Shown here: piece after piece, positions 1 through 23,867 of the stretch
How the letters are laid out: every line of letters starts with the position of its first letter
Numbering within the stretch: the stretch's first letter is position 1
Assembly: GCF_024223415.1 (NCBI RefSeq)
Contig: NZ_CP100500.1
Origin: Escherichia coli
Lineage (GTDB): Bacteria; Pseudomonadota; Gammaproteobacteria; Enterobacterales; Enterobacteriaceae
Length of the DNA: 64,000 bases
Reading direction: 5' to 3' (one strand)
Notes under the pieces: generated by a model
The model's database searches: none
What the model was told of the DNA's origin: nothing
Seen by the model: only the letters and a program-made list of their open reading frames with translations
Made by a program: the position numbers and the translations under genes

Positions 1-235
1 GACGACATCAGCCGCTCCCACAGCCAGCAACTGAGAGTAACGAATATAGCTGTTATCCCGAAGCCATATCAGCGTATCAATAAAATACCGGCACTTTTTC
101 TGATCGTGATCAACCTGGTCCGGGATATCGAAAAAACCAGAATAAATCAAAACCTGAGGAGCCGGATGCGTGTTCAGTAATCGGCAGAATATTTTGCCGG
201 TGAGTACATAAAAATCATCATTTAAGGAGTGCATC

Positions 236-451
236 ATGAATCCCCGATTAACGTTAACAGAACATCAGCGCCGTGCCGAAGCAGTGAACAATGTTCTGGA
301 AGATATTATCCGGTTACATCGCGGAGAACTGAGTGTCTGTCGTGCCACTGTTCATTTTCAGGAAATACAAAAGCAGTTTGATACTTCTGTTTTTGCAGAA
401 GGGATCACTTATGCCCTGGACCAGATAAGGTCAGAAAATCGCCCCGGATAA
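236..451 (+). CDS. hypothetical small protein (71 aa), prophage-associated
   Basis: ORF with AAGGAG Shine-Dalgarno just upstream of ATG; no recognisable motif; lies upstream of a phage-type Dam methylase. Confidence 0.4.
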   Translation: MNPRLTLTEHQRRAEAVNNVLEDIIRLHRGELSVCRATVHFQEIQKQFDTSVFAEGITYALDQIRSENRPG

Positions 452-643
452 TCCCTAAACCACATTAACAGAAATCACTTCATCCCTGCCGCATCATGAA
501 AGAACGACCAGCCCGGTGCTTCGGACCCACCAGGCTGGCCATCGTCCCACAGGAATGCGCTGTGAGCCGACCGGGGTTCAGTCAGTCTCGCGAGACCAGA
601 CTAGCCTGCCATATTTTTAATAATTGTAAAAGGCTTACAGATT

Positions 644-1408
644 ATGAAAATGCAGACATTACCCATCGTTCCATGGATTGGTGGCAAACGTCGCCTGGCA
701 AAACACATCCTGCCGCTGTTTCCGGCGCATGAATGTTACGTGGAGCCGTTCTGCGGCGCAGCAGCGCTCTATTTTCTTAAGACACCTGGTAAGCTCGAAG
801 TCATTAACGATATCAATGGTGAACTGGTAAATCTGTATCGGGTGGTAAAACATCATCTGGAAGAATTTGTCCGCCAGTTCAAATGGGCGCTGGTCAGCCG
901 GCAGATCTACAAATGGCTGCAGATCACCCCGACAGAAACACTGACGGATATCCAGCGTGCAGCACGGTTCTACTACCTCCAGAAGCAGGCGTTTGGCGGC
1001 AAGGTGGCAGAGCACAGCTTCGGCACCTCCACCACATCCCCGCCACGCTTCAACCTGCTGCGTATCGAGGAAGAACTGTCAGCGGCACACCTGCGGCTTT
1101 CCAGAACGGTGATAGAACACATGGACTGGCAACAGTGCATTGAGCGCTATGACCGTCCGCACACGCTGTTCTACTGTGACCCGCCGTATCTGGGTACAGA
1201 AGGCTATGGTGTGGATTTTCCTGAAGGGAACTACTCGCGGCTGGCAGAGCTGGCCCGGTGCATCAGAGGAAAGATGATAATTTCGGTGAACGACATCCCG
1301 CAGATGCGCGAGGTGTTCACTGGACTGAACATACAGACAGTGAACATCAACTACAGTCTGGCAGGCAAATCAACTCCACGCCGTGAGCTGGTGATCTGCA
1401 ATTTCTAA
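644..1408 (+). CDS. Dam-family (D12 class) N6-adenine DNA methyltransferase, orphan/phage type
   Basis: N-terminal WIGGK AdoMet-binding motif (PWIGGKRRL) and catalytic DPPY motif (YCDPPYLGTEGY); no adjacent nuclease partner. Confidence 0.85.
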   Translation: MKMQTLPIVPWIGGKRRLAKHILPLFPAHECYVEPFCGAAALYFLKTPGKLEVINDINGELVNLYRVVKHHLEEFVRQFKWALVSRQIYKWLQITPTETLTDIQRAARFYYLQKQAFGGKVAEHSFGTSTTSPPRFNLLRIEEELSAAHLRLSRTVIEHMDWQQCIERYDRPHTLFYCDPPYLGTEGYGVDFPEGNYSRLAELARCIRGKMIISVNDIPQMREVFTGLNIQTVNINYSLAGKSTPRRELVICNF

Positions 1409-1526
1409 AAGCCATAACCGGAAAGTACAGTGCTTTCCGGTAAGCCCGCCGATTTCTGCCATGCTACTGACGGCGTTTTCTGAAAGCATCCAGATCAACC
1501 ACCTGTCCTTTCTGTCCAGGTCAGAA

Positions 1527-1865
1527 TCAGCCTGCGAGTTTGCCTGGTTTGGGTTGAATGAAGACTTTGCCGACCTCAAGAATTGCCCTCCGTTGTTCGG
1601 GGCTCATCTCGTCGAATGCATCCATTAACTCTTTCTTTTCTTGTGACATATAAGGTGCAACAACAGGCTGACTCCGCACCCCAGTAACTACATACAAAAC
1701 ATCTACACCGATTTCTGATAGTGCAGATAACTGCACTGCAGTAGGAGAAGTGCGATCTTTTTCCCAATCAATAAAAGTTCTCTTTGCCACACCGATAGCA
1801 TCAGCCAACCCTTGCTGTGTAAGAGATAGACGCTCTCTTTCTTCTTTAATACGTAACCCGATCAT
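1527..1865 (-). CDS. XRE-family helix-turn-helix repressor (prophage repressor candidate)
   Basis: track ORF 1527..2018 trimmed to internal Met (MIGLRIKEERERLSLTQQGLADAIGV...); classic HTH pattern; divergent from the Ner-like gene. Confidence 0.65.
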   Translation of the reverse strand: MIGLRIKEERERLSLTQQGLADAIGVAKRTFIDWEKDRTSPTAVQLSALSEIGVDVLYVVTGVRSQPVVAPYMSQEKKELMDAFDEMSPEQRRAILEVGKVFIQPKPGKLAG

Positions 1866-1889
1866 GTGAGTTTTTCTGCACTCTTTAAG

Positions 1890-1918
1890 TTGACTGGTGA
1901 GATAATCTGCACCATAAT
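1890..1918 (+). promoter_or_regulatory. candidate sigma70 promoter for the Ner-like/early operon (TTGACT - 17 bp - CATAAT)
   Basis: -35 TTGACT and -10 CATAAT separated by 17 bp, about 45 bp upstream of the 1966 start codon; sequence-only prediction. Confidence 0.3.
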
Positions 1919-1965
1919 CTATCACACATAAGGCAAACATCATTGCATCAACAAAGGAGACAACG

Positions 1966-2154
1966 ATGACTGCAGAACAAGTCAAAGCTCTCTTCCGCCA
2001 GCGCGGGATCACTTTCACCCGCTGGGCAGAAGAAAACGGCTACAACCGCAATGAGGTATACCGCGTTCTCAATGGGCAGAGCAAAGCACGTTACGGTAAA
2101 TCCCATGAAATCGCCGTGAAACTGGGGCTGAAATCAACAGCTCAGGCAGCCTGA
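1966..2154 (+). CDS. ner: Ner-like (Ner/Nlp family) small DNA-binding protein
   Basis: 62 aa; length and HTH layout resemble phage Mu Ner (GITFTRWAEENGY...GKSHEIAVKLGL); divergent from repressor, upstream of transposase. Confidence 0.6.
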   Translation: MTAEQVKALFRQRGITFTRWAEENGYNRNEVYRVLNGQSKARYGKSHEIAVKLGLKSTAQAA

Positions 2155-2200
2155 ATATTTTGATTCTTTGTAAAAGGTTATCACATATCGCAAAAGAGGT

Positions 2201-2515
2201 ATGCAGATGAGTAAGACGAATGTTTCAAGCTCCGGCAGTCGCATCCTCCGGGTACTCAAAGCGCTGCGCGGTCATGCCCTGAACGGTATTTCCAATGGTG
2301 AACTGGCGGCAGCACTGCACGAGTCACCGGCAAACATCAACCGGGCACTCAACACCCTCATTGAAGAAGGACTGGCCCTGAAACTGGAAAACGGGCGTTT
2401 CGCACCGGGCATCCAGTTGCTGCAGATCGCCATGGCCCACAGTAACGAGATGGCACGTGCACAGGATCGCATTAACGAAATCAACCAACGTGTCATTTCA
2501 GGTAGTCGTTTGTAA
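2201..2515 (+). CDS. winged-helix (IclR N-terminal-like) DNA-binding protein, function unknown
   Basis: 104 aa; SRILRVLKAL...ISNGELAAAL...INRALNTLIEEGL pattern typical of a winged HTH. Confidence 0.45.
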   Translation: MQMSKTNVSSSGSRILRVLKALRGHALNGISNGELAAALHESPANINRALNTLIEEGLALKLENGRFAPGIQLLQIAMAHSNEMARAQDRINEINQRVISGSRL

Positions 2516-2525
2516 GGAGTAATCA

Positions 2526-3443
2526 ATGGGACGCACCAAATCACCGGTTAACACTGAACTGAACGCCGAGGTACCGCTGTCGGATGATCTCAACGTCAGC
2601 CTGAATGCCATGACACAGCATCGCATGGAGATCATGCAGCAGTTTGGTGATGGACTGCCTTATGAACGTGATCGCATCGTTCACGAAGCACGTTTTTATA
2701 TGGCGCAGAGTGCTGAATCTATGCTGGAAGCGGGTAAACGGCTGATCATCTTAAAAGAAAATGAGCCACACGGGGACTTTGTTGGAATTGTAGAAGAACA
2801 ACTTGGTTTGCACGTGCGCGCAGCACAACGAATGATGAAAGCATCTTTGAAATACCTTTCACCAAAACTAGAGCCAAAAGCGACAACGTTGTCGCTTTTG
2901 GGTAAGGCAAAATTATTTGAACTTGTTGCTGAAGACGATGAAGACCTTGCCGAACTGGCCGACGGCGGCACAGTTGCCGGCCTGACGCTTGATGATGTTG
3001 ATCGCATGTCAGTACGTGAACTTCGCCAGGCCCTGCGTGAAGCGCGCGAAACTAACGCAGCTCAGCAACAGGTGCTTGCCGGAAAGGACGAAAAAATCAA
3101 CGAACTGGCCACAAAACTGGAGAAGAAATCCCGTATTCAACCGCCTGAGCCTGATGAAGAGGTGAAGAAGCTGCGGGCGGAAGTGACCGCATTAGCGGTT
3201 GAGGCGGAATCTGCCATCGCCGTCCGGCTCTCCGGTGCCTTTGAAACCCTGTGTGAATACTGCAGTAAAAACATGATTGATACCCCCAGAGATTTCATGG
3301 CCGGTCTGGTCTGCCAGATTGAACGCAGTGTTCATGCATTGCGTGAGACGTTCGACCTTGATGCCGCACCATCGGGTAACGATGCCCCCGCCTGGCTGAC
3401 CGAACCGGAGCCTGAAATCAACCGACCGGAGGGCATGCAGTAA
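2526..3443 (+). CDS. hypothetical protein (305 aa), acidic and coiled-coil rich
   Basis: good RBS (AAGGAG) upstream; no catalytic motif recognised; sits between Ner-like gene and transposase. Confidence 0.45.
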   Translation: MGRTKSPVNTELNAEVPLSDDLNVSLNAMTQHRMEIMQQFGDGLPYERDRIVHEARFYMAQSAESMLEAGKRLIILKENEPHGDFVGIVEEQLGLHVRAAQRMMKASLKYLSPKLEPKATTLSLLGKAKLFELVAEDDEDLAELADGGTVAGLTLDDVDRMSVRELRQALREARETNAAQQQVLAGKDEKINELATKLEKKSRIQPPEPDEEVKKLRAEVTALAVEAESAIAVRLSGAFETLCEYCSKNMIDTPRDFMAGLVCQIERSVHALRETFDLDAAPSGNDAPAWLTEPEPEINRPEGMQ

Positions 3444-3760
3444 TGAACACGGATAACACACAAAATATCCTGATGGACAGCCCGGAAGCACTGGGGCACG
3501 CACTGTGTAATCTGCTGCCGGAGATGGTGCAGGGTTTCCGCGTGGTGACACCTTCCGGTGAAATCTGCGTACCCGCACAGGAGGCGCATCCGTTTGTACT
3601 GACGATGGAAGTGATGCTGATGCAGCAGATAAGACGTCTGCAGCATCAGTCAGCATTGCGCCCGGCAGTTGCGCCGCAACCGGTAAATAACGTGGTGAAA
3701 ACCTGCGATGGCGAAACACTGTACGACCTCGCCAGAAAAATTGCCGCCAGAATCGGATAA
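3443..3760 (+). CDS. hypothetical protein (105 aa)
   Basis: start overlaps upstream stop (ATGA-type coupling); no motif recognised. Confidence 0.35.
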   Translation: MNTDNTQNILMDSPEALGHALCNLLPEMVQGFRVVTPSGEICVPAQEAHPFVLTMEVMLMQQIRRLQHQSALRPAVAPQPVNNVVKTCDGETLYDLARKIAARIG

Positions 3761-3775
3761 CAGGGAAGACAAGCT

Positions 3776-5545
3776 ATGACCCCGGCACTGACTGAAAAAC
3801 TTGTTGAAACAGCCCGCGCGGCACGTAATGCAGGGCATGGTAAACGCGGTGCAATATACGACGCTGCCTGTGCTGAACTTGGCATGTCCCGCGCCACTCT
3901 GCTGCGCAGGCTGAAGGAGGTCTCTGTGACTGATAAACGCAAAAAACGCGCCGATGCCGGACGCAGCACCCTGACCCGCGACGAAGCCGCGCTGATATCT
4001 GCCACACTACGTGAGGCCACCCGCAAGAACGGTAAGCGTCTCTATTCCATCGCGGATGCAGTGGAAACCCTGCGGGCTAACGGCTTTATCTCCGCAGGCA
4101 GAACAGATGAAACCACCGGTGAGTTTTTCCCGTTGTCCGAAGATGCCATCAGTCGTGCCCTGCGTAACTATGGCCTGCACCCGGAACAACTGGATGCCCC
4201 TGCACCGCATACCGAAGTGGCCAGTCTGCACCCCAATCATGTCTGGCAGATTGACGCCTCACTCTGCACGCTTTACTACCTGAGCAATGGACATAAAGGG
4301 CTGCAGGTGATGGACAGCGCGAAATTCTACAAGAACAAGCCCGCTAACCTTGCCCGTATCGCCAGTGACCGCGTGTGGAGTTACGAGATTACCGACCATG
4401 CCAGCGGCTGGATTTACGTTGAGTATGTGACGGGTGCGGAATCCGGTGAGAACCTGTGTTCTGTGCTTATCAACGCCATGCAGGAGCGTGGCGGCGCAGA
4501 CGTGCTGCACGGCGTGCCAAAAATACTCTATCTCGACCCCGGCTCGGCAAACACCGCGGGTATGACGAAAAACATGTGCCGCTCACTGGGCATCGACCTG
4601 ATAGCGCACAAGCCGCATAACGCCCGCGCCACCGGACAGGTGGAAAAGGCGCGTGACATTATCGAACGCAAGCTGGAGCCGGGTCTGAAGTTCCGGCCGG
4701 TTCACAGTCTGGAAGAACTCAACGCGCTGGCCGCGAAATGGCGCAGCCACTTTAACGCCACGGCTGTTCACAGCCGCCACGGTAAAACCCGCACGGATAT
4801 CTGGCTGAAGATTACTGCTGAGCAGCTGAAAAAAGCGCCTTCCGTTGAGGTATGTCGTGAACTGGCTGTGGCGGCACCAGAACTCCGCAAAGTCACGCCA
4901 AAACTTCGTGTCTCGTTCCGGGGCACTGAATTTGACGTATCAACGGTACCGGGCGTACTGGTCGGTGAAAAACTGATGATTACCCGTAACCCGTGGCGCA
5001 GCGATGTGGCACAGGTGGTTCTGACCGGTGAGGACGGCCACGAGACGTTCTTCCTGGTCGAAGAGGTCAGAAAGAACGAGTTTGGCTTTGCTGAAGGCGC
5101 GGCGGTATTTGGCGAAAGTTACAAAGCCCTGCCGGAAACCCCGGCGCAGATGGCGGCAAAAGAAACCGAAGCGCTGGTCACCGGTACAGACAACGCCGCA
5201 GATGCAGCTGCCGCACGCAAGGCGAAGGCGCTGCCGTTCGGCGGGCGGCTTGACCCGTATAAACATATTGATGACGCCACACTTCCGGCCTGTATACCGA
5301 AGCGTGGTCAGGCCTCTGACGTACGCGGACCGCGCACTGAACAGCGTCCCATGACTCATGTGGAGGCCGCGAAAGCCCTGCGCGGGAAGTTTAGCGCAAA
5401 CGGCCTGACCTGGACGCCGGAACATTACCGCCAGTTAACGGCACAGTACCCGGACGGCGTACCGGAAGCCGCACTGGATGAAGTCATGGCCACGCTGACC
5501 ACGCCGGCCCGCAGCAGCGTTATCAGCATTGTTAACGGCAACTGA
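3776..5545 (+). CDS. Mu-like DDE transposase (MuA-type, integrase catalytic core)
   Basis: 589 aa; N-terminal HTH region, central rve-like core (HVWQIDAS...), immediately followed by an AAA+ B-like gene as in transposable phages. Confidence 0.85.
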   Translation: MTPALTEKLVETARAARNAGHGKRGAIYDAACAELGMSRATLLRRLKEVSVTDKRKKRADAGRSTLTRDEAALISATLREATRKNGKRLYSIADAVETLRANGFISAGRTDETTGEFFPLSEDAISRALRNYGLHPEQLDAPAPHTEVASLHPNHVWQIDASLCTLYYLSNGHKGLQVMDSAKFYKNKPANLARIASDRVWSYEITDHASGWIYVEYVTGAESGENLCSVLINAMQERGGADVLHGVPKILYLDPGSANTAGMTKNMCRSLGIDLIAHKPHNARATGQVEKARDIIERKLEPGLKFRPVHSLEELNALAAKWRSHFNATAVHSRHGKTRTDIWLKITAEQLKKAPSVEVCRELAVAAPELRKVTPKLRVSFRGTEFDVSTVPGVLVGEKLMITRNPWRSDVAQVVLTGEDGHETFFLVEEVRKNEFGFAEGAAVFGESYKALPETPAQMAAKETEALVTGTDNAADAAAARKAKALPFGGRLDPYKHIDDATLPACIPKRGQASDVRGPRTEQRPMTHVEAAKALRGKFSANGLTWTPEHYRQLTAQYPDGVPEAALDEVMATLTTPARSSVISIVNGN

Positions 5546-5555
5546 GGAGGGAAAC

Positions 5556-6722
5556 ATGCTGGTACTGAAGCAGCAACTGAAAGAGGCCCGTATTCCACAG
5601 GCGGTGGCGGCGAGAGCTGTCGATGTTTCTGAGGCCACGCTGGCCCAGATTGTGAATCATAACGCGTGGCCCCGCACCAGCCCCGGAGAAGTGCGCCGGC
5701 GTCTTGCGTCCTGGCTGGAAAGTCAGGGGATTGATACAACGAAGAGTTTTGATGCTGTACAGGGCGCGGCCACGCCCCGTACAGCGAGTACCACAGATAA
5801 AACGAGCCTCAGTGAGGAAGAGAATATGTTACTCAAAAAACAGGTGTTATTTCCAGCAACCAAAAAAGCGTTTGGTCTTTTCCGTGACCCGTTCGCCGAC
5901 GAAGCCATGCAGGGTTCTGATGATGTGTTCACCACCCCGGACATTCGCTACGTGCGTGAGGCGCTGTACCAGACAGCCCGTCATGGTGGGTTTATGGCCG
6001 TCATCGGTGAGTCCGGTGCGGGTAAATCCACGCTGCGCCGCGACCTGACTGAACGTATTAACCGCGAGAATGCGCCGGTAATTGTTATCGAGCCATACAT
6101 CATTGCCATGGAAGACAACGATGTGAAAGGGAAAACCCTGAAGGCTGCAGCGATTGCCGAAGCCATTATCAGTACCATCGCACCACTGGAAAGCATCAGA
6201 CGCAGTCAGGACGCCCGCTTTCGCCAGTTGCATCGCGTCCTGAAAGGCAGCAGCCAGGCGGGGTTCAGCCACGTTCTGGTGATTGAGGAGGCCCACAGTC
6301 TGCCCATTCCGACACTGAAACACCTCAAACGCTTTTTTGAGCTGGAGTCCGGTTTCAAAAAACTGCTGTCCATCGTGCTGATTGGCCAGCCGGAACTGGC
6401 GACAAAACTGTCTGAACGCAATATGGAAGTCCGTGAAGTCGTTCAGCGCTGTGAGGTGGTCGAACTTCTGCCTCTGGACAATAACCTTGAAGAATTTCTG
6501 ACGTTCAAACTGCAACGGGCCGGTAAACAACTGACGGACATTATGGACGCCAGCGCAGTGGATGCCATACGTGCCCGCCTGAGCAATCCGGGAAGTCATC
6601 GTAAAAATATGGTCAGCCTGCTGTATCCGCTGGCCGTCAGTAACCTGGTAATAGCCGCCATGAATCTGGCCGCTGAAATCGGGGTTCCACAGGTCAACGC
6701 TGACGTTGTCAAAGGAGTTTAA
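5556..6722 (+). CDS. MuB-like AAA+ ATPase (transposition target-DNA activator)
   Basis: Walker A GESGAGKST, Walker B-like VLVIEEAH, N-terminal HTH; start set at ATG 5556 with GAGGAGG RBS (track ORF begins 5529). Confidence 0.8.
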   Translation: MLVLKQQLKEARIPQAVAARAVDVSEATLAQIVNHNAWPRTSPGEVRRRLASWLESQGIDTTKSFDAVQGAATPRTASTTDKTSLSEEENMLLKKQVLFPATKKAFGLFRDPFADEAMQGSDDVFTTPDIRYVREALYQTARHGGFMAVIGESGAGKSTLRRDLTERINRENAPVIVIEPYIIAMEDNDVKGKTLKAAAIAEAIISTIAPLESIRRSQDARFRQLHRVLKGSSQAGFSHVLVIEEAHSLPIPTLKHLKRFFELESGFKKLLSIVLIGQPELATKLSERNMEVREVVQRCEVVELLPLDNNLEEFLTFKLQRAGKQLTDIMDASAVDAIRARLSNPGSHRKNMVSLLYPLAVSNLVIAAMNLAAEIGVPQVNADVVKGV

Positions 6723-6724
6723 TA

Positions 6725-6994
6725 ATGAAATCCACCACAGGTATCAACCAGCAAATCAGCAAAGTGCAGTCAGCCATTATGGCGCTTAAGGCGACGAACA
6801 CGGATGTACAAAGCATCACCATCAGGGGTAACAAACCTGTCATCCGCGTTTCCCGGAGTGCGCATTGCATGCGCATGCTTGAGCAGGGAAAGGCCTGTTA
6901 TCTGTATACCGGACATGACCACAGGGGATATTTCCGTCAGGGCGTTTTCGAACTGCACGGCTGTCGCGTCGTGTGGCCGGAATCTTTGTGGTAA
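6725..6994 (+). CDS. hypothetical early-region protein (89 aa)
   Basis: AAGGAG RBS; no motif recognised. Confidence 0.45.
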   Translation: MKSTTGINQQISKVQSAIMALKATNTDVQSITIRGNKPVIRVSRSAHCMRMLEQGKACYLYTGHDHRGYFRQGVFELHGCRVVWPESLW

Positions 6995-7021
6995 TCAGCA
7001 CAACCGGAGAAATCATAAAAT

Positions 7022-7552
7022 ATGGCAAAAAGTACAAAAGGGGCAAAACGTATCAAGGCCGCAGCGGCACTCTGGGTACCAGGGACACGCGAAGAGGTCA
7101 TTGAGGGAATCAGACTACTCGGTGACGCACAACGTGAACTGGTCAGGGCTGAAACAGAAATGAATGACGCCATTGGCGATATCACCGCACGTTATGCCCC
7201 GCTCACCGAGAGCCTGAAAAAACGCATGGCCGAACTGCAGTCCGGTATTCAGACATGGTGTGAGGCACACCGTGATGAACTGACCGGCAACGGGAAGGTG
7301 AAGTTCGCTAACCTCACCACCGGCGAGGTGCAGTGGCGAAACCGTCCGCCATCAGTCAGTATCCGTGGGGCGGATAATGTTATTGAATTACTGAGACGTC
7401 TGGGGCTTGAGCGCTTTATTCGTGTAAAAGAGGAAATAAATAAAGACGCTATCCTGAATGAAAAAGAGGCCGTGAAAAATATTCCCGGTATTTCCATTAA
7501 AAGCGACATTGAGGATTTTTCAATAATTCCTTTTGAGCAGGATGTGCAGTAA
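7022..7552 (+). CDS. gam: Gam-like host-nuclease inhibitor (Mu Gam family, DNA-end binding)
   Basis: 176 aa; closely resembles phage Mu Gam along its whole length as recalled (N-terminal KRIK..AAA, central ETEMND, C-terminal EDFSIIPFEQ). Confidence 0.85.
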   Translation: MAKSTKGAKRIKAAAALWVPGTREEVIEGIRLLGDAQRELVRAETEMNDAIGDITARYAPLTESLKKRMAELQSGIQTWCEAHRDELTGNGKVKFANLTTGEVQWRNRPPSVSIRGADNVIELLRRLGLERFIRVKEEINKDAILNEKEAVKNIPGISIKSDIEDFSIIPFEQDVQ

Positions 7553-7649
7553 ACACACCACGTTAATTATTTAATAAAAACATTTTCTTTTTTATTCCGG
7601 CGTCAGCGCCGCGGGCTTCTGCACGCCGGAAACAGAGGAGAATTAAATC

Positions 7650-7844
7650 ATGATATTTAAATGTATTCAGTGCGAGAGGGATATAACAGCCCTGCGTTTT
7701 CACAGCGCCATCGCCGTGATGTCCGGTAAATACCACATCCCTGCGGTACGCGTCACCCTGGTCTGTCCGTACTGCAGCCAGCATTTTTCGGCAGACGTGC
7801 CCGTCATGGAATTCTCCCGCCCTGACAGGGAGGACGCGCAATGA
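7650..7844 (+). CDS. small zinc-ribbon protein (two CxxC pairs)
   Basis: CIQC ... CPYC; GAGGAG RBS. Confidence 0.45.
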   Translation: MIFKCIQCERDITALRFHSAIAVMSGKYHIPAVRVTLVCPYCSQHFSADVPVMEFSRPDREDAQ

Positions 7845-8113
7845 TTACCCCACAGGAAGCACGACAGCGCACCCGAACCCTTGTTGAACACTATGTCAAC
7901 GAGTGTGAATGTCGCGACCTCACCGATGTGAAGCACGTCCTGACGGCGCTAATCAGCATGGCCACACAGGCCATTGTGGCAACCAACGGAAAGGCGGCTG
8001 CCCTGCAGGTACTGATGAACACACTCACCCACACGGCAGAGCATGAGGTGCCGTACCGGATGGAAACCACTGCAGAAGGCGGCCTGCACATCACCGTCAG
8101 CCGGAAGCACTGA
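7841..8113 (+). CDS. hypothetical protein (90 aa)
   Basis: start overlaps upstream stop (ATGA); no motif recognised. Confidence 0.4.
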   Translation: MITPQEARQRTRTLVEHYVNECECRDLTDVKHVLTALISMATQAIVATNGKAAALQVLMNTLTHTAEHEVPYRMETTAEGGLHITVSRKH

Positions 8114-8122
8114 GGGTGCGGC

Positions 8123-8419
8123 ATGACACGAAACACCGAACTCACCCGCACCGCCCTCTACCGTCTGGCCCTGCAGCGTTTCGGGCCGGATGCACAGGCC
8201 CTGAAACTGACAGAAGAGGCCGCTGAACTGGCGGCCAGTGCTGCCCGCAACCTGAACGGACAGGGCAGCGAAAGTGACCTCGCGGCAGAGCTGGCAGACG
8301 TGGAAATCATGACAGAGCAACTGCGCCTTCAGGGGATGGACCGGCTGATTGACTTCCACAAACAGAAAAAACTGGAACGTCTGGCTGCACGACTGGGCGT
8401 GATTTACACGAACGAGTAA
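8123..8419 (+). CDS. MazG-like nucleotide pyrophosphohydrolase candidate (all-alpha NTP-PPase fold)
   Basis: 98 aa; EExxE ... ExxD acidic motif pair (EEAAELAAS ... AAELADVEIMTEQL) at MazG-like spacing. Confidence 0.5.
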   Translation: MTRNTELTRTALYRLALQRFGPDAQALKLTEEAAELAASAARNLNGQGSESDLAAELADVEIMTEQLRLQGMDRLIDFHKQKKLERLAARLGVIYTNE

Positions 8420-8433
8420 CCGGGAGGCATTCA

Positions 8434-8556
8434 ATGGCTGACATACTCAGGGAAATCACCGCATGGACACTGATTCTTACTGGTCTGGCGACATGCCTCA
8501 GTGCGGGAGCAGCCCTGGCTGCCCTGCTGATGCACATAACAACACAGTGGTTATGA
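8434..8556 (+). CDS. small hydrophobic peptide (40 aa, one predicted TM helix)
   Basis: not in supplied track (<60 aa); GGGAGG RBS about 7 nt upstream of ATG; hand-counted coordinates. Confidence 0.3.
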   Translation: MADILREITAWTLILTGLATCLSAGAALAALLMHITTQWL

Positions 8557-8645
8557 GAAAAGCTTAAAGCAGCATACAGCCTGAAAGAGCTGTCCGACGC
8601 TGTCCGGGCATGGAAACGGCAGAAAAATACCGGAGATACAGAACA

Positions 8646-9329
8646 ATGACAGACCAGAATAAACACATTGAGAAACTGAAAAAGTTGCTGGCGCTGGCCG
8701 CATCCGGCAACCCGCATGAGGCTGCTCTGGCACTGCGCCGCGCCCGTAAACTGATGGATGTTCACGGCATCACACATTCCGACATCGCCATGAGTGATAT
8801 TGATGAAACCATCAGTCACTACTGGCCGACAGGCAGCCTCCGTCCGCCGCGCTACATGCCAGGGCTGATGAACATCATCCGCGAGGCATTTGGTGTTAAC
8901 TCCATCATTCACCCCGGCACATATCCGGGTGTGGGGTTCTACGGCAAACGGGAACGGGCCGCACTGGCCGCGTACACCTGGGAAGTGCTGGCCCGTCAGC
9001 TGAAAAAGGCGCGTCAGCAGTATATCAGTGCACAGAACAAAAGAATAAAAACCGCCACCCGCACCAGCCGTGGAGACCAGTTTGCTGAAGGCTGGGTGCT
9101 GGCCGTTATCAGTGAAATACAGTCCTTCGCCCTGACCAATGACGAACGTGAACTGATGCAGCAGTGGCTGGAACATAAATACCCGCAGACGCAAACCACC
9201 AGGGCGCGTAAACCGGGAAGAAGTCGCAATGGCGACGCCTCGCGCTATGCGGGGTTTCGAGAAGGGCAGAACGTCAGACTGCACCGACCGGTCAGTGGGC
9301 GGGAACAGCAGAAACTGGAGGCCAGATGA
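8646..9329 (+). CDS. DUF2786-like phage protein
   Basis: track ORF 8610..9329 trimmed to Met with GGAGA RBS; N-terminal KLLALAASGNPHEAALALRRARKLM motif typical of this family. Confidence 0.5.
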   Translation: MTDQNKHIEKLKKLLALAASGNPHEAALALRRARKLMDVHGITHSDIAMSDIDETISHYWPTGSLRPPRYMPGLMNIIREAFGVNSIIHPGTYPGVGFYGKRERAALAAYTWEVLARQLKKARQQYISAQNKRIKTATRTSRGDQFAEGWVLAVISEIQSFALTNDERELMQQWLEHKYPQTQTTRARKPGRSRNGDASRYAGFREGQNVRLHRPVSGREQQKLEAR

Positions 9330-9556
9330 TGACGTTATCAGGTAACAGCCGGAAATTAAAAGCCTGCCGAATATCTGCCAGATACCTTTTTGCCCGCGCC
9401 TTTTTTAAGAACGTCAGGCCGGGGATCACAATTGGTGTTATTGCCGGACGCGAACAGGTTGAAAAATACATGTCAGGTGCATGGTGGAATAAAGACCCTG
9501 TCATTGCTGCCCGTAATATTCATATCAGTTGGGGAGATATTCAGAATGACTGCTGA
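9326..9556 (+). CDS. hypothetical protein (76 aa)
   Basis: GGAGG RBS; overlaps neighbours head-to-tail. Confidence 0.35.
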   Translation: MMTLSGNSRKLKACRISARYLFARAFFKNVRPGITIGVIAGREQVEKYMSGAWWNKDPVIAARNIHISWGDIQNDC

Positions 9557-9761
9557 ATCTGTTGTATGTGCCCTGTTCTGGTATTGTTTTGTCGGTTGGT
9601 GTACTGCTGAACTGCACCGCCGTTCAGGGTTTTATTCACGTTACAGTGGTGCCGGTTACTGGATTAGCTGGTCGGTGATGTTCCTGTGCTGGCCTGTGGC
9701 ATTTCCTTTATATGTCGATTATATCGGTGATGCAGGCAGAAGGAGCAACGATGATGACTAA
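9546..9761 (+). CDS. small Trp/Cys-rich membrane protein (71 aa)
   Basis: track ORF 9390..9761 trimmed to ATG 9546; hydrophobic. Confidence 0.35.
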   Translation: MTAESVVCALFWYCFVGWCTAELHRRSGFYSRYSGAGYWISWSVMFLCWPVAFPLYVDYIGDAGRRSNDDD

Positions 9762-10203
9762 ACAACGTCTTATCCAGCTTATCCATATTGCCCGTAATGA
9801 ACTGGGTATGGATGAAGACACCTACCGCCAGATGTTACAGGGGCTGACCGGTAAAGCCTCAACCAAAGGAATGGATACCACACAACTAAACTGCGTGCTG
9901 GAATCCATGAAAAGGAAAGGCTTTCGCGTTAAGCCTGCCGGAAAAGCCAGCTCCGGTTTACCGCTGGATAACCATCCGCAGTCCAGGAAAATCCGTGCGC
10001 TATGGCTTGAAATGGCTGCTGCCGGCATTGTTCGTGACCGTTCAGAAAATGCATTAGCGCGGTGGATCAAGCGGGAAACGGGCATCAGCGCCCTGCGCTG
10101 GCTCAATACTGAACAGGCAAGCAGTGTTATTGAGAAACTGAAGAAGTGGCAGCACAGAGCTGCGGGAGTAAAACATGAGCGACCTGAATCAGTTTCGAAG
10201 TAA
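9751..10203 (+). CDS. gemA: GemA-like protein (Mu GemA family)
   Basis: N-terminal KQRLIQLIHIARNELGMDEDTYRQML pattern; positioned directly upstream of mor as in Mu. Confidence 0.75.
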   Translation: MMTKQRLIQLIHIARNELGMDEDTYRQMLQGLTGKASTKGMDTTQLNCVLESMKRKGFRVKPAGKASSGLPLDNHPQSRKIRALWLEMAAAGIVRDRSENALARWIKRETGISALRWLNTEQASSVIEKLKKWQHRAAGVKHERPESVSK

Positions 10204-10573
10204 AGGGCCGGAACTCCTGGTGGAGCTGGCACAGCATACCTCTGAGACCGTTCGCGAGATTATTGATATTGAGCCCGCAATTGCCGACCAGATTGGTCAG
10301 GCCGTCGCGAACCGAATGATGCAGGTCTGGGGCGGGCAAAACGTTTATTTCCCGATGGGCATGGTATGGAAGGTCAGTCAGCGCGACCGGGAAATCTTCA
10401 GGGAGTTTAACGGACGCAACCACCACGAACTGGCCCGCAAGTTTGGTGTTTCGCTTCAGTGGGTCTACAGCGTGGTTAAGCGGGTCAGAAAAGAAGAACT
10501 GGATCGGATGCAGGGCAGGTTGTTTGATGAAGATCTGCCAGAGGAGACGAAAGACGTTAACAAATCCAGATAA
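10175..10573 (+). CDS. mor: Mor-family transcriptional activator (Mu middle operon regulator)
   Basis: 132 aa; C-terminal HTH REIFREFNGRNHHELARKFGVSLQWVYSVVKR typical of Mor/C family. Confidence 0.85.
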   Translation: MSDLNQFRSKGPELLVELAQHTSETVREIIDIEPAIADQIGQAVANRMMQVWGGQNVYFPMGMVWKVSQRDREIFREFNGRNHHELARKFGVSLQWVYSVVKRVRKEELDRMQGRLFDEDLPEETKDVNKSR

Positions 10574-10618
10574 TTCCTGCTTGTTAAAGTCCTTTCAAAA
10601 ATCTCCTTATTGTATAAA

Positions 10619-10649
10619 AGCACGGTAGACCCCGTACCGTGCTTTTTTT
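10619..10649 (+). terminator. rho-independent terminator downstream of mor
   Basis: GC-rich hairpin AGCACGGTA...TACCGTGCT followed by a run of 7 T. Confidence 0.5.
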
Positions 10650-10687
10650 ATGCTCTCTCTTTAGTATTCAGGATGCAGGGAGAAAAT

Positions 10688-11320
10688 ATGTTTGACGTTT
10701 CGTTGTTAAATCTGCCATGGGCAACACTGGTGACCCTGACCAGTGGCTATATTGGGTATTTTATTGCGAATGTGGGACTGAAGGATCACCACAAGCCCAT
10801 TGAGGTGACTTTTTCTTCGCTGATTTTTGGCCTGACAGCAATGATGGCTTACCAGGCTGTTATGTGGGCAGGTCTGAATGCCTGGCTGGCAACACCACCA
10901 GCACTTCTGTGTGCCGTTACATGCGGTGCGTGGTGGCGCAGGTACGGTCGCAAATGGATGTACAGATTACTGTGGAATAATGATATTTCATGGTCTGACG
11001 ATACCAGCTCAGCATGGCAGGCAATGTTTGATCAAACAGGCTTCAGCGTTACCGAGGTCAGAGTGATTCTTCGCGATGGTTCCGGTATGATGTCACGGCT
11101 GCCAGGGAACTTTGAACAGTGGCCTAACGGTCCGTTTACCCTGGGGAATAAAGGCGATATGGTTCTTTACGTCACGCACAGCAGCCCTTCAGGCAGTAAC
11201 GAATGGGAAGAGTATAAAGGCGTGGTTGATAAGTACTGGGGAGCTCTGGCAACCTATATTCCAGCAGATCAGATTGCCAGAGTGGAGATCAGGCGCGTTC
11301 GTGCAACGAACGATGAATGA
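10688..11320 (+). CDS. membrane protein (210 aa), N-terminal TM helices plus soluble C-terminal domain
   Basis: track ORF 10610..11320 trimmed to ATG 10688 (GGGAGAA RBS) because the upstream part overlaps the mor terminator. Confidence 0.5.
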   Translation: MFDVSLLNLPWATLVTLTSGYIGYFIANVGLKDHHKPIEVTFSSLIFGLTAMMAYQAVMWAGLNAWLATPPALLCAVTCGAWWRRYGRKWMYRLLWNNDISWSDDTSSAWQAMFDQTGFSVTEVRVILRDGSGMMSRLPGNFEQWPNGPFTLGNKGDMVLYVTHSSPSGSNEWEEYKGVVDKYWGALATYIPADQIARVEIRRVRATNDE

Positions 11321-11670
11321 TGTTTATTTTTTCCCTGGGGCAGGGGCTGCCGGCATAGTGGTTTTATTGGCAGAGGAAGACGATTCTCCTTTTCTACCGG
11401 AATCGCGCTCGAACGTCACGATGTGCTTGCTTTTGGGATTTTCTGAGTAATCCAGGCTATCATGCTTATTGTTTTGAGTAGTCATTGGAATCATCCTTTT
11501 TGTTGCGGGTCATGTTTCAGCAAACTCGATTCTAAGTTGCCAGGAAGGATGATTTCAATGCCCGACTTATCTATCGTATAGCGGAAAAGAATTTCAGTTC
11601 TGTTCACCAGAACCCATGTTAACCCACTCCAATTCGTTATTTATCTCACGGATCCCCCTTCATTTATCTC

Positions 11671-12012
11671 ATGTCTGATCAGGTGCGTAAGCTCTCTGGC
11701 GGCAACCAGCAGAAAGTTATCCTCGCGCGCTGCATGGCGCTCAATCCACGGGTGTTGATTGTCGATGAGCCGACGCGTGGCATCGACGTTGGAACCAAAT
11801 CGGAAGTGCACCAGGTGTTGTTTGATATGGCGAAAAAGGGCGTGGCGGTGATCGTGATCTCCTCCGATCTGCTTGAAGTGATGGCGGTGTCTGACCGGAT
11901 CATCACCCTTAGTGAAGGCCGGTTAACTGGCGAGATCCACGGTGACGACGCTAACGAAGAACGGCTGATGACGATGATGGCTATCAACCACAACGCCCTG
12001 AACGCGGCATAA
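11671..12012 (+). pseudogene. 5'-truncated sugar ABC transporter ATP-binding protein (C-terminal ~113 aa only)
   Basis: LSGGNQQK signature, Walker B LIVDEPTRGIDV; the N-terminal ~390 aa expected for a RbsA-like two-domain ATPase are missing. Confidence 0.8.
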
Positions 12013-12023
12013 CGGAGTTTCTC

Positions 12024-13052
12024 ATGACGCAGATGATTCCTAAAACGCAGGTCCCGGTAAAACGCGTCGGACGCATCGATCCCATTGCCTTCTTCGAGCG
12101 CTTCGGGGTACTGATTTTCATGATCCTGCTGCTGATCTTCTTTCAGTCGCAGAACAGTAATTTTTTCTCTGAACGCAATATTTTCAACATCCTGACCGAA
12201 GTCTCCATCTACGGGATCATGGCCGTGGGGATGACCTTCGTCATTCTGACCGCTGGGATCGACCTCTCCGTGGGCTCTATTCTGGCAGTGTGCGCCATGA
12301 CAGCGGCGTACGTGATCAAAGGCGACAATTTCACCACAGTCGATCCGAACGCTTGGGGCGGTATGAGCTGGCTGATTGGGCTGGGGATTTGTCTGACCAT
12401 GGGTACAGCGATTGGCTTCCTGCACGGTCTGGGCGTCACTCGCCTGCGCCTACCACCGTTCATCGTCACCCTTGGCGGGATGACCATCTGGCGTGGTCTG
12501 ACGCTCGTGATTAACGACGGTGCGCCGATTGCCGGCTTCGATCAGGGTTATCGCTGGTGGGGACGAGGGGAATTGCTCGGCATCTCCATTCCGATCTGGA
12601 TCTTCGCCATCGTTGCCATTGGTGGTTATCTGGCACTGCATAAAACCCGTTGGGGGCGCTTCGTCTATGCCATCGGTGGCAACCCGGAGGCGGCACGTCT
12701 GGCTGGGGTAAACGTGAAGCGTGTGCTGGTTAGCGTCTATGTGCTGATTGGCTGTCTGGCGGGGCTGGCGGGCTTCATCCTGAGCGCTCGTCTGGGGAGC
12801 GCTGAGGCGGTTGCCGGGATCTCCTTTGAGCTGCGTGTTATTGCCTCGGTGGTTATTGGCGGCACGTCGTTGATGGGGGGATATGGGCGCATCGGCGGCA
12901 CTATCATCGGCTCCATCATCATGGGCATTCTGATTAATGGCCTGGTACTGATGAACGTCTCGGCCTACTACCAGCAAATTATCACCGGATTAATTATCGT
13001 TCTGGCGGTGGCATTCGACACCTATGCCAAGAGCCGTCGCGGCGCACTGTGA
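12024..13052 (+). CDS. sugar ABC transporter permease (RbsC-like)
   Basis: 342 aa polytopic membrane protein downstream of the ATPase fragment. Confidence 0.8.
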   Translation: MTQMIPKTQVPVKRVGRIDPIAFFERFGVLIFMILLLIFFQSQNSNFFSERNIFNILTEVSIYGIMAVGMTFVILTAGIDLSVGSILAVCAMTAAYVIKGDNFTTVDPNAWGGMSWLIGLGICLTMGTAIGFLHGLGVTRLRLPPFIVTLGGMTIWRGLTLVINDGAPIAGFDQGYRWWGRGELLGISIPIWIFAIVAIGGYLALHKTRWGRFVYAIGGNPEAARLAGVNVKRVLVSVYVLIGCLAGLAGFILSARLGSAEAVAGISFELRVIASVVIGGTSLMGGYGRIGGTIIGSIIMGILINGLVLMNVSAYYQQIITGLIIVLAVAFDTYAKSRRGAL

Positions 13053-13060
13053 GGATCACG

Positions 13061-14194
13061 ATGAAAGAGGTTCGTATTGGATTGATTGGCACCGGGTATA
13101 TTGGCAAGGCGCATGCCATTGCCTATGCCCAGGCACCGACGGTGTTCAATCTGCGCGGCAAACTGGTGCGCGAGATGGTGGCTGAGGTGAACCCGGCGCT
13201 GGCGGCAGAACGCGCGCAGGCGTTTGGCTTCAATCGCTCAACCGGAGACTGGCGGGTGCTCGTGGCCGACCCGGCCATTGATGTGGTGGATATTTGCTCC
13301 CCTAACCATCTTCACAAAGAGATGGCGCTGGAGGCGATCCGCCACGGCAAGCACGTCTATTCGGAAAAGCCGCTGGCACTGAATGCCCACGACGCGCGTG
13401 AGATGGTCGACGCTGCGAAGCGGGCAGGGGTGAAAACGCTGGTGGGTTTCAATTACATGAAAAACCCGACGGCACAGTTGGCGAAAGAGATTATTGCGCG
13501 CGGCGAAATTGGTGAGGTGATCCACTTCTACGGAACCCACAACGAAGACTATATGGCCGACCCGCTTTCCCCTATTCACTGGCACTGTTTTAAAGAGACC
13601 GCCGGACTGGGGGCTCTGGGTGACTTGGCGGCACATATCGTCAATATGGCCCAGTATCTGGTGGGAGAGATTGAGCAGGTCTGTGGCGATCTGAAAATTG
13701 TGGTGCCGGCACGTCCGGCAAAGGCCGGATCGTCGGAAATGGTCACCGTGGAAAATGAAGATCAGGCCCACGCGATGGTGCGCTTTGCGGGCGGGGCGCA
13801 GGGCGTCATTGAAACTTCCCGCGTCGCCTGCGGCCGCAAGATGGGGCTGTCATATGTCATTACTGGTACCAAAGGAGCGATCAGTTTTACCCAAGAGCGG
13901 ATGGCAGAGATAAAGCTCTATCTACATGATGATCCGGTGAACCGTCAGGGGTTCCGGACACTGTTGGTCGGTCCGGCACACCCGGATTACGGCGCGTTTT
14001 GCATGGGCGCAGGTCATGGTATCGGCTTTAACGATCAAAAAACGGTGGAAGTGCGTGATCTGGTAGACGGCATTGCCACCGACGCACCGATGTGGCCGGA
14101 CTTCGAAGAGGGCTGGAAGGTCTCGCGCGTGCTGGATGCCATCGCACTCTCACACCAGCAGGGCCTCTGGCTGAACGTGAATGACATTGTCTGA
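13061..14194 (+). CDS. Gfo/Idh/MocA-family NAD(P)-dependent oxidoreductase (inositol 2-dehydrogenase-like)
   Basis: N-terminal Rossmann motif IGLIGTGYIGKAH; clustered with iol genes. Confidence 0.75.
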   Translation: MKEVRIGLIGTGYIGKAHAIAYAQAPTVFNLRGKLVREMVAEVNPALAAERAQAFGFNRSTGDWRVLVADPAIDVVDICSPNHLHKEMALEAIRHGKHVYSEKPLALNAHDAREMVDAAKRAGVKTLVGFNYMKNPTAQLAKEIIARGEIGEVIHFYGTHNEDYMADPLSPIHWHCFKETAGLGALGDLAAHIVNMAQYLVGEIEQVCGDLKIVVPARPAKAGSSEMVTVENEDQAHAMVRFAGGAQGVIETSRVACGRKMGLSYVITGTKGAISFTQERMAEIKLYLHDDPVNRQGFRTLLVGPAHPDYGAFCMGAGHGIGFNDQKTVEVRDLVDGIATDAPMWPDFEEGWKVSRVLDAIALSHQQGLWLNVNDIV

Positions 14195-14206
14195 AGAGGG
14201 TTCAAC

Positions 14207-16111: not shown

Positions 16112-17013
16112 TGGAGACGACAATGAGTGTACAACTGGGCATCAACCCGCTGACGTGGACGAACGATGATCTGCCTTCACTGGGCGCGGAGACATCTCTG
16201 GAGACCTGCCTGAGTGAAGGGAAAGAGGCCGGTTTTGCCGGCTTCGAACTGGGCAATAAATTCCCGAGAGAAGCGCGCCTGCTCGGCCCCATTTTGCAGC
16301 GCCACGACCTGCAGTTGGTCTCCGGCTGGTATTCCGGCCGCCTGTTGGAACGCAGTGTAGAGGACGAGATTGCTGCTGTGCAGTCGCATCTGACGCTGCT
16401 GCGAGAGCTGGGTGCAAAAGTACTGGTTTTTGCGGAAGTGAGTGGCTGCATTCACGGTGAGCAGCAGACGCCGGTTCACCTGCGCCCACGTTTCCCGCAG
16501 GAATGCTGGAAAGAGTATGGTGAGAAACTCACCGTGTTCGCCCGCTATACGCAGCAACAGGGGGTACAGATTGCTTACCACCATCATATGGGCACGGTGA
16601 TTGAGTCCGCTCAAGACGTGGACAACCTGATGCTCCACACGGGTGAGGAGGTTGGTTTACTGCTGGATACTGGCCACCTGACCTTTGCCGGGGCCGATCC
16701 GCTGGCGGTGGCACAGCGATGGGCATCGCGCATCAATCATGTTCACTGCAAAGATGTGCGCGCCGACGTGCTGGCGGACGTCAAAAACCGTAAAACCAGC
16801 TTCCTCGACGCGGTGCTGAGCGGCGTGTTTACCGTGCCGGGTGACGGCTGCGTGGATTATCCGCCGATTATGCAACTGCTGAAAACGCAGGATTATCACG
16901 GTTGGCTGGTGGTGGAGGCTGAACAGGACCCGGCGATCGCCCATCCGCTGACCTACGCCCGTCTGGGATATAACAATCTGAGCCGCCTGGCGCGCGACGC
17001 CGGGCTTATCTGA
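16111..17013 (+). CDS. iolE: sugar-phosphate isomerase/epimerase TIM-barrel protein (inosose dehydratase-like)
   Basis: start overlaps iolC stop (TAATG); N-terminal LGINPLTWTNDDLPSLG motif resembles IolE. Confidence 0.65.
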   Translation: METTMSVQLGINPLTWTNDDLPSLGAETSLETCLSEGKEAGFAGFELGNKFPREARLLGPILQRHDLQLVSGWYSGRLLERSVEDEIAAVQSHLTLLRELGAKVLVFAEVSGCIHGEQQTPVHLRPRFPQECWKEYGEKLTVFARYTQQQGVQIAYHHHMGTVIESAQDVDNLMLHTGEEVGLLLDTGHLTFAGADPLAVAQRWASRINHVHCKDVRADVLADVKNRKTSFLDAVLSGVFTVPGDGCVDYPPIMQLLKTQDYHGWLVVEAEQDPAIAHPLTYARLGYNNLSRLARDAGLI

Positions 17014-17022
17014 GGAGGTGAC

Positions 17023-17844: not shown

Positions 17845-17866
17845 ACTGAGTACCTAAGCTAAAAAA

Positions 17867-17885
17867 GGGGAATGACTCCCCTTTT
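17867..17885 (+). terminator. rho-independent terminator after the iol genes
   Basis: GGGGA-loop-TCCCC hairpin flanked by A-run and T-run. Confidence 0.45.
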
Positions 17886-19494: not shown

Positions 19495-19817
19495 TTTTTT
19501 GCCCGTCCATATTCAACGGCTTCTTTGAGGAGTTCATTTTCCATCGTTTTCTTGCCGAGCAGGCGCTGGAGTTCTTTAATCTGCTTCATGGCGGCAGCAA
19601 GTTCAGAGGCAGGAACAACCTGTTCTCCGGCGGCGACAGCAGTAAGACTTCCTTCCTGGTATTGCTTACGCCAGAGAAATAACTGGCTGGCTGCTACACC
19701 ATGTTGCCGGGCAACGAGGGAGACCGTCATCCCCGGTTCAAAGCTCTGCTGAACAATTGCGATCTTTTCCTGTGTGGTAAGCCGTCTGCGTTTCTCCGGT
19801 CCTAAGACATCAATCAT
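19452..19817 (-). CDS. insC: IS2 ORFA (InsC)
   Basis: track ORF trimmed to [12 protein letters not shown] start; 121 aa HTH protein. Confidence 0.85.
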
Positions 19818-20728: not shown

Positions 20729-20745
20729 GTTGGAGTCATTACCAG

Positions 20746-23771: not shown

Positions 23772-23867
23772 TTCATTAAAGTAATTTACTTCGCTATCCT
23801 TTTTCCAGTTACTCACAAAGAAAAATATTCAGAAAATAATTCCCGGGTTGGCAGCCCGGGATGATTA

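Follow-up and report, generated by a model that had tools for sequence, protein, structure and literature searches.

Regulatory and early arm of a probable BcepMu-like transposable prophage in Escherichia coli

The window analysed here is a 64,000-nucleotide stretch of Escherichia coli DNA, the first 11.68 kb of which carry phage genes. Its outermost part (1..235) is prophage-internal intergenic DNA, and window position 1 corresponds to position 29956 of the complete relative L001, to which the sequence aligns from there on with 99.4% identity. A conserved phage ORF of 71 amino acids with no assigned function (236..451, plus strand; phrog_4490, 4.7e-51) and an orphan DNA N6-adenine methyltransferase of the Dam family (644..1408, plus strand; TIGR00571, 116.8 bits, cutoff 114.85; phrog_56; PADLOC MTase_II) precede the gene for an XRE/HTH-type lysogeny repressor (1527..1865, minus strand). 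The repressor, annotated as a 112-residue protein in relatives, matches PHROG repressor families and DicA/RstR-like NCBIfam models, is the counterpart of BcepMu gp17, and its gene diverges from the early operon. The region between this gene and the first gene of the operon (1866..1965) contains two 16-nt operator-like repeats, GTGAG(T/A)T(T/A)(T/A)TCTGCAC, at 1866-1881 and 1897-1912, and a sigma-70-like early promoter, TTGACT-17-CATAAT, at 1890-1918, which encloses the second repeat. The sequence motifs suggest operator and promoter roles for this divergent control region.

All genes of the early operon lie on the plus strand. The first encodes a small Ner/Cro-like DNA-binding protein of the BcepMu gp16 family (1966..2154; NCBIfam TIGR04111, 98 bits, cutoff 34). 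An IclR-like HTH regulator (2201-2515), a DUF3102 protein that is the counterpart of BcepMu gp10 (2526-3443), and a 105-residue ORF (3443-3760) follow; these three were assigned from PHROG matches (phrog_1368, phrog_1748 and phrog_5446) and the BcepMu gene order. The transposition functions comprise transposase A (3776..5545; Pfam rve; phrog_310), with a DDE/rve integrase core of the BcepMu/B3 (Tn552-related) type and homology to BcepMu gp09, and the AAA_22/ExeA-like transposition ATPase B (5556..6722; PF13401, 1.3e-19; phrog_296, 'DNA transposition protein'), the counterpart of BcepMu gp08. Gam, the host-nuclease inhibitor that protects DNA ends, is encoded at 7022..7552 (phrog_491, 5.5e-73; PF07352 on identical relatives). 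The semi-essential early region (7650..9761) includes a MazG-like NTP pyrophosphohydrolase (8123-8419), a small membrane ORF interrupted by a nonsense codon (8434-8649) that is also present in the NR301 prophage, a DUF2786 protein (8646-9329) and further small ORFs. GemA (9754..10203; PF06252, 1.6e-40) and a transcription activator of the Mor/C family (10175..10573; PF08765, 1.3e-43) complete the set, mor being the last regulatory gene before the terminus. A tblastn search with Mor against one complete 37.7-kb relative detected no second copy, and Mor appears to be the only activator of this type in the whole prophage.

An intrinsic terminator, a 12-bp stem followed by a T run (10616..10646, plus strand), closes the operon. 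Beyond it are the gene of a 210-residue membrane protein (10688..11320, plus strand; phrog_12870) and, on the minus strand, a 53-residue ORF that is annotated in relatives (11324..11485), with a promoter-like site running from 11558 to 11529. The end of the membrane-protein gene at 11320 and the host ABC gene fragment are separated by 361 bp. No RNA family was found in an Rfam scan of 1..11681, and no late genes lie 3' of mor. The original prediction had listed the repressor, Ner-like protein, transposase, B, Gam, GemA and Mor in this order, with Dam and a small ORF upstream of the repressor and late genes lacking downstream of mor, and the genes are indeed present, intact and arranged in that way. 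Functionally, its description of the region as the early module of a transposable phage like Mu is right.

The mor-proximal terminus of the prophage, which corresponds to the 'left' end of BcepMu, occupies 11600..11681 and ends ...TGTCTGATCA-3', its last bases reading ...GATCA. The same terminus was found at 14 independent insertion sites, with unrelated chromosomal flanks that differ from one another as soon as the CA has been passed. A search for proteins identical to the transposase gave ten other insertion sites, the present one not being among them. Two repeats (reverse complement G[AC]GATAAAT) are located 12-20 and 35-43 nt from the tip, 23 bp apart, and are putative transposase-binding sites; the same two-site geometry recurs at the opposite end in relatives and at both ends of BcepMu. 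A Mu-type terminus had escaped recognition in the original prediction, which placed the boundary at 11670/11671. The prophage/host junction is instead 11681/11682: the supposed truncated ABC ORF begins in phage terminal sequence, which supplies the ATG at 11671 and three further codons in frame with the host codons. A search of 1..1530 for a terminus had been proposed, and no left terminus is present there; in relatives, the TGAT...G[AC]GATAAAT motif of that end occurs only ~30 kb further left.

The three complete relatives are flanked by target duplications of 6 bp rather than the 5 bp that had been anticipated. The right copy of the duplication is predicted to be GGTGCG at 11682..11687, the intact target reading ...GCAGGA GGTGCG TAAGC. 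The left copy falls outside the window, where the junction is expected to read ...GGTGCG directly followed by TGATGCGCCGCGCGATAAATG..., and the late arm, ending in TGATGCGCC..., would adjoin the 5' part of the ABC gene (~1217 nt, or 1.2 kb). The junction at 11681 is crossed by none of the 5426 complete E. coli genomes searched, and the exact insertion was not found among them.

The host sequence that follows (11682..12012, plus strand) is what remains of a gene in the iol island that encodes the ATPase of a sugar ABC transporter; this 3' remnant comprises approximately the final 109 codons, and it aligns to positions ~400-505 of sugar ABC ATPases of ~500 residues. An intact gene is present in other E. 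coli, for example a 515-residue ABC ATPase at 2785-4332 of locus L003, with the break exactly at window position 11681, where identity to the intact iol locus begins. The truncated gene is the insertion target, disrupted by the prophage within an inositol-catabolism island, and the insertion knocks out the ATPase of the transporter in that island. An internal inversion or rearrangement was also considered and rejected: when a complete relative and the intact iol locus were compared with the 64-kb window by blastn, no other part of the window matched late genes or the missing 5' portion of the ABC gene.

Over 11.68 kb, the arm shares 99.4% identity with the NR301 prophage; its identity to Escherichia phage PhiKM, a member of Bcepmuvirus, is 95.7%. 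Hundreds of prophages in E. coli match it at 95-99%, which excludes a chance pattern for the region, and at least 80% of the query is present in 464 of the 5426 complete E. coli genomes. In every one of the 13 related loci examined (the complete relatives L001, L004 and L005, of 37.4-37.7 kb, and L008-L017), late genes are contiguous with this arm, on its left, an arrangement that the original prediction had itself named as grounds for its refutation. Those immediately to the left in L001 encode a P-loop NTPase, a holin, an SLT endolysin, terminase, portal, capsid and P2-like tail proteins, and a late arm with a lysis cassette, Mu-like head and P2-like contractile tail is likewise found in PhiKM. 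With a probability of roughly 0.9, window positions 1..11681 carry the regulatory and early genes of a temperate transposable prophage of E. coli, of the complete type, that is BcepMu-like (Bcepmuvirus), has the B3/BcepMu organization and inserted by transposition into the ABC ATPase gene, the genes of this arm running from the minus-strand repressor through the gp16-like gene, A, B, Gam, GemA and Mor to the terminus at 11681. About 26 kb of late genes would then lie beyond the left edge of the window, their presence in the source genome being suggested by the relatives.

Two readings had been offered in the original prediction, a prophage that decayed and lost its late genes or a compact element derived from Mu, and the 13 loci argue against both. 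Decay would mean that the late genes were deleted in the source genome and that the early arm alone is left. In its favor, the window shows no late genes, a nonsense mutation interrupts one of the small ORFs, and a degraded copy with broken terminase and SLT genes does occur among the relatives (L011). However, prophage sequence continues up to window position 1 without a junction, the major early genes are all full length, and the sole indel relative to the relatives is intergenic, with no frameshift in the early arm; moreover, phages of the BcepMu family naturally end downstream of mor, where late genes had been looked for, and all the related loci keep their late genes on the left. Such a deletion is therefore considered improbable. 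A compact mini-Mu-like or satellite element consisting of transposition and regulatory genes only, for which the one argument is that late genes seem to be lacking from the window, is very improbable, because no left terminus lies within 1..1530, the other end motif is far to the left in relatives, and the copies examined, among hundreds in E. coli, are 37-kb prophages.

The transposase exhibits 68% identity to BcepMu gp09 over 98% of its length, 98.5% identity to that of PhiKM and 56% to that of B3, and its gene is directly followed by that of the ExeA-like ATPase. The A and B proteins have no detectable sequence match to MuA and MuB. Phage Mu was not among the tblastn matches at 1e-5, in which the only Escherichia records were PhiKM and Phi06_2974 B; Pfam identified rve alone in the transposase, and no Mu-specific Pfam domain was found in either protein. 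Kinship with MuA and MuB was further pursued in a PDB sequence search at E<=1, which returned no MuA or MuB chain, only weak matches to retroviral integrases and generic P-loop proteins. The transposase is an rve/Tn552-like enzyme and not MuA. Its nearest non-phage relatives are of the IS481 family, at ~25% identity. When Tn552 was sought by tblastn against plasmids, the matches listed were likewise IS481-family proteins with ~25% identity, and the genera listed did not include Staphylococcus; the Tn552 link of the transposase is drawn from the literature (PMC2628397 and the title of Toussaint & Van Gijsegem 2017).

As a second ground for refutation, the original prediction had named A and B genes from a non-phage transposon family with different flanks. 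This applies by half: A and B are not MuA and MuB but rve/Tn552-IS481-like and ExeA-like, yet their context is that of a phage. A non-phage transposon of the Tn552, IS481 or Tn7 type, in which A and B merely resemble phage genes, could account for a transposase with only an rve core and distant IS481 relatives and for a B protein that is a generic AAA_22 ATPase, yet it is hardly credible, as A and B have Gam, GemA, Mor and PHROG phage families as neighbors, form one continuous stretch with virion genes in relatives, and belong to an element of which a near-identical version has been deposited as phage PhiKM. Tn552 resembles the present element in its ends, which have two adjacent transposase sites each, and in producing a 6-bp duplication. 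Transposons and insertion sequences of the Tn552/IS481 type share the rve catalytic core with the present element, with weak IS481 matches, but are small and non-viral, whereas the element here is a 37-kb virus.

The closest known system is BcepMu of Burkholderia (Bcepmuvirus), the gene order of which mirrors that of the window: the genome end, mor, gemA ... B, A, gp10 ... gp16 and the repressor, then lysis, head and tail genes. PhiKM, Phi06_2974 B, Klebsiella phage KP12 and a Salmonella 'BcepMu' prophage are its enterobacterial relatives. In both BcepMu and the window a gp16-family regulator (TIGR04111) heads the early operon, and the ends of both have TGA... termini with two G[AC]GATA(A/T)(A/T)T sites 23 bp apart. 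The E. coli lineage differs in having Dam and small ORFs at the place of BcepMu gp18-gp20 and, between mor and the terminus, a further gene for a membrane protein, which has no counterpart in BcepMu. The far end in E. coli relatives carries a serine recombinase and an invertible tail-fiber segment, whereas in BcepMu this position is taken by an acyltransferase and an invertible region is lacking (PMC2628397). TG...CA termini and an rve, Tn552-like transposase have been described for BcepMu-like prophages (PMC2628397). The early operon is also inverted relative to Mu in the B3-like phages of Pseudomonas (PMC5977238). B3 differs in being a siphovirus-type phage, and nucleotide similarity to it is confined to a ~100-bp stretch of gam.

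Phage Mu shares the mode of life, being temperate and using DDE transposition with an ATPase partner both to integrate and to replicate, and it has homologues of Gam, GemA and Mor as well as TG...CA ends. The target duplication of Mu is 5 bp, as opposed to the 6 bp of the three complete relatives. Mu transcribes its early operon from the left end into the genome, and C, lysis and head genes follow it (left end-c-ner-A-B ... mor-C-lys-head-tail), whereas the operon in the window reads outward to the end, with a terminator, one accessory gene and the terminus beyond mor, and there is a single activator of the Mor/C type. Late genes had been expected after mor in the original prediction because the Mu layout (left end, c, ner, A, B ... 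mor, C, lysis, heads) was assumed. Their apparent lack results from the edge of the window and from the application of the Mu gene order to a family with an inverted early operon.

In the BcepMu-like prophage proposed here, the minus-strand XRE-type repressor would keep the divergent early promoter shut, probably via the two 16-nt operators. Upon induction, the early operon would be read rightward to the nearby genome end, producing the gp16/Ner-like regulator, A, B, Gam, GemA and, last, the single Mor/C-type activator. A and B are expected to act on the TG...CA termini, each with its two binding sites spaced 23 bp apart, and to integrate and replicate the genome by transposition with 6-bp target duplications. 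Mor would then activate the genes for lysis, the Mu-like head and the P2-like tail, which lie across the repressor/Dam region on the opposite strand, and it may do so by acting directly on the late promoters.

The unit between the mor terminator and the prophage terminus, with the membrane-protein gene (10688-11320) and the 53-residue ORF, is the only part of the arm without a known role. The 210-residue membrane protein has no match in PADLOC, Pfam or NCBIfam, its homologues are annotated as 'hypothetical protein', and DUF6338 is recognized on distant members. Its position between mor and the terminus suggests a separate, moron-like unit, and an end-proximal accessory slot of this kind is where phages of the BcepMu family carry genes that modify the host. 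By analogy, the membrane protein and the 53-residue antisense ORF might constitute a moron for lysogenic conversion, superinfection exclusion or anti-phage defense that is expressed from the repressed prophage, an assignment that is tentative and rather doubtful at present.

The element is a common, ordinary prophage of the BcepMu type that has already been described, and it holds no surprise for specialists in transposable phages. The main value of the analysis is a correction, in that the 'missing late genes' are explained by the window edge together with the inverted early operon. In practical terms it yields the exact prophage terminus at window position 11681 and a 6-bp target duplication rule for the E. 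coli lineage of BcepMu-like prophages, and the end motif TGAT-N7-G[AC]GATAAAT-N14-G[AC]GATAAAT can be used to delimit such prophages.

The 37.7-kb prophage of E. coli NR301 (locus L001) contains the 11.68 kb of the window as its right-hand third. Its late genes occupy the opposite strand, left of the Dam gene, and comprise holin, SLT endolysin and spanin-like lysis genes, the genes for both terminase subunits (small and large), a DUF935 portal of Mu type, Mu F and G, protease/scaffold and capsid genes, P2-type sheath, tube, tape measure and baseplate genes and, in the far part, tail fibre genes and a serine recombinase. The same layout, with late genes adjoining the early arm, is repeated in two further complete copies, one in yhfW and the other between kbl and tdh, and in 10 additional loci (L008–L017) identified by an exact match to the transposase sequence. 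The late genes that the original prediction considered possibly stripped are carried by the relatives left of Dam, a region that falls off the window edge. Position 1 of the window maps to L001 29956, where the P-loop NTPase gene lies on one side and the 71-aa ORF on the other, and therefore the window starts inside the prophage. No late genes occur elsewhere in the 64-kb window. We infer that the late arm lies beyond the left window edge and that it is complete. The apparent puzzle arises from the window boundary and from the use of Mu as a template.

The gene list proposed from the sequence was borne out by the ORF map and family searches. A 71-aa ORF and the gene for a Dam-family methylase lie upstream of the XRE-type repressor (1527–1865, minus strand), which is followed on the plus strand by a small Ner-like protein (1966–2154) that matches the NCBIfam TIGR04111 'BcepMu gp16 family' with 98 bits against a cutoff of 34. 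The plus-strand genes continue with an IclR-like HTH protein, a DUF3102 protein, a 105-aa ORF, a 589-aa transposase with no Pfam domain other than the rve integrase core, a 388-aa AAA_22/ExeA-like ATPase, Gam, several small ORFs (among them a MazG-like pyrophosphohydrolase and a DUF2786 protein), GemA (PF06252) and Mor (PF08765). A strong intrinsic terminator (10616–10646) lies 3' of mor. All major early genes are full length, and alignment of the early arm with three relatives showed only one indel, which is intergenic (position 103), besides 60 private substitutions. Nothing suggests decay of the visible early arm, contrary to the proposal of a decayed prophage. The 71-codon membrane ORF at 8434–8649 (plus strand) carries a W41-stop in common with NR301, whereas L004 and L005, the other two complete relatives, retain the full 71 aa.

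The terminal sequence ...TTATCTCATGTCTGATCA is identical at 14 independent insertion sites (the window copy, L001, L004, L005 and L008–L017), and unrelated DNA starts directly after the final CA at these sites, which places the terminus at window position 11681. The opposite end begins TGATGCGCCGCGCGATAAATG... in the three complete relatives, which are flanked by 6-bp direct duplications (CATATG, GGATAT and GAAAGC). Mu-type ends had been sought by eye without success; an exact end with a final CA does exist, but the duplications in the relatives are 6 bp rather than the anticipated 5 bp. Target duplications are 5 bp in Mu and 6 bp in Tn552, so that the relatives differ from the former and resemble the latter. 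From the tips inward, each end opens with TGAT and has G[AC]GATAAAT at nt 12–20 and once more at nt 35–43, a spacing of 23 bp; by inference, these repeats are almost certainly transposase-binding sites. Both BcepMu ends exhibit the same geometry, with TGAAG..G[AC]GATATTT occurring twice. TG...CA termini are reported to be characteristic of BcepMu-like prophages (PMC2628397).

The insertion splits a 515-codon sugar ABC ATPase gene after about codon 406, just 5' of the LSGGQ signature. In another E. coli, the uninterrupted target has the sequence ...GCAGGA GGTGCG TAAGCTC..., and the predicted duplication of this copy is GGTGCG (11682–11687). The truncated ABC gene noted earlier is indeed a host 3' remnant, but the start of its 113-codon ORF (11671–12012) is not of host origin: the phage terminus (11671–11681) supplies an in-frame ATG and three codons, a chance fusion. 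The 5' part of the gene is found nowhere else in the 64-kb window. The prophage and the iol genes occupy a genomic island (11682–28504) bounded by a P4-type integrase (27068–28282, minus strand) adjoining tRNA-Phe (28429–28504, minus strand). The island also contains a phosphoethanolamine-transferase homologue (22098–23771) and a low-GC block (24–27 kb, GC 0.36–0.38), in which a Dcm-type C5 methyltransferase (25344–26468, minus strand) and a 307-aa ORF possibly constitute a restriction-modification pair. Relative to other E. coli iol loci, a 1331-bp IS2 (18578–19908; TnpA and TnpB, NF006928/NF006918) has inserted immediately 3' of iolB, and an IS1 transposase fragment lies at 20225–20728. Elsewhere in the window, Rfam matches above the gathering score were obtained for naRNA4, a REP-derived nucleoid-associated RNA (40425–40495), and for the ES036 sRNA (61746–61788).

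The annotated BcepMu genome is a mirror image of the window, running from the terminus through mor (gp01), gemA (gp02), B (gp08), A (gp09) and the DUF3102 protein (gp10) to the HTH gp16; the divergent repressor gp17 follows, with a small number of accessory genes separating it from the holin, lysis, head and P2-like tail genes. In B3-like phages, the early operon is inverted with respect to that of Mu (PMC5977238). The window transposase shares 68% identity with BcepMu gp09 and 56% with the B3 transposase; phage Mu is absent from its tblastn matches. Neither MuA nor MuB chains were found in the PDB sequence search, which yielded only weak matches to retroviral integrases and generic P-loop proteins. 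A complete relative contains only one Mor/C-family gene, and therefore a separate C gene is not to be expected 3' of mor. BcepMu has no counterpart of the accessory unit (10616–11560) lying between the mor terminator and the end of the prophage. This unit comprises a 210-aa membrane protein (10688–11320; phrog_12870) and, in convergent orientation, a 53-aa ORF that has a promoter-like site. The membrane-protein gene is separated from the 3' end of the ABC ATPase gene by 361 bp of non-coding DNA. The membrane protein has no match in Pfam, PADLOC or NCBIfam, and its distant homologues are DUF6338 proteins. Its gene, located behind the terminator, forms a separate moron-like unit.

Two 16-nt repeats (1866–1881 and 1897–1912) are probably the repressor target, by analogy; the second is enclosed by a good sigma-70-like promoter (TTGACT-17-CATAAT) facing the gp16-like gene. 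Based on the family, derepression would lead to expression of A, B, Gam and the other early genes and to replicative transposition from the TG...CA ends, and Mor, at the end of the operon, would activate the divergent late arm. In the E. coli relatives, the tail-fibre assembly gene WP_021537398.1 sits next to a serine recombinase and differs in strand between the compared segments of L001 (3981–7470) and L004 (10587–13578), a pattern suggestive of an invertible, Mu G-like host-range segment. BcepMu lacks such a segment (PMC2628397).

A megablast search with window positions 1–12500 located the region in 814 of 5426 complete E. coli genomes, 464 of which hold at least 80% of the query, with a top identity of 99.4%. 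All matches break off at 11681–11687, and the host side with the iol genes matches other E. coli at 99.5–99.7% starting at 11681. Up to 4 prophage places occur per genome, and 113 places are plasmid-borne (for example, CP088398.1). Two copies, L011 and L012, reside at different sites on the same contig of GCA_027278105.1, one of them with broken terminase and SLT genes. Escherichia phage PhiKM, classified in Bcepmuvirus, is 95.7% identical to the region in the phage collection. The element belongs to a phage genus already described, is itself very common in E. coli and has a near-identical phage genome on deposit.
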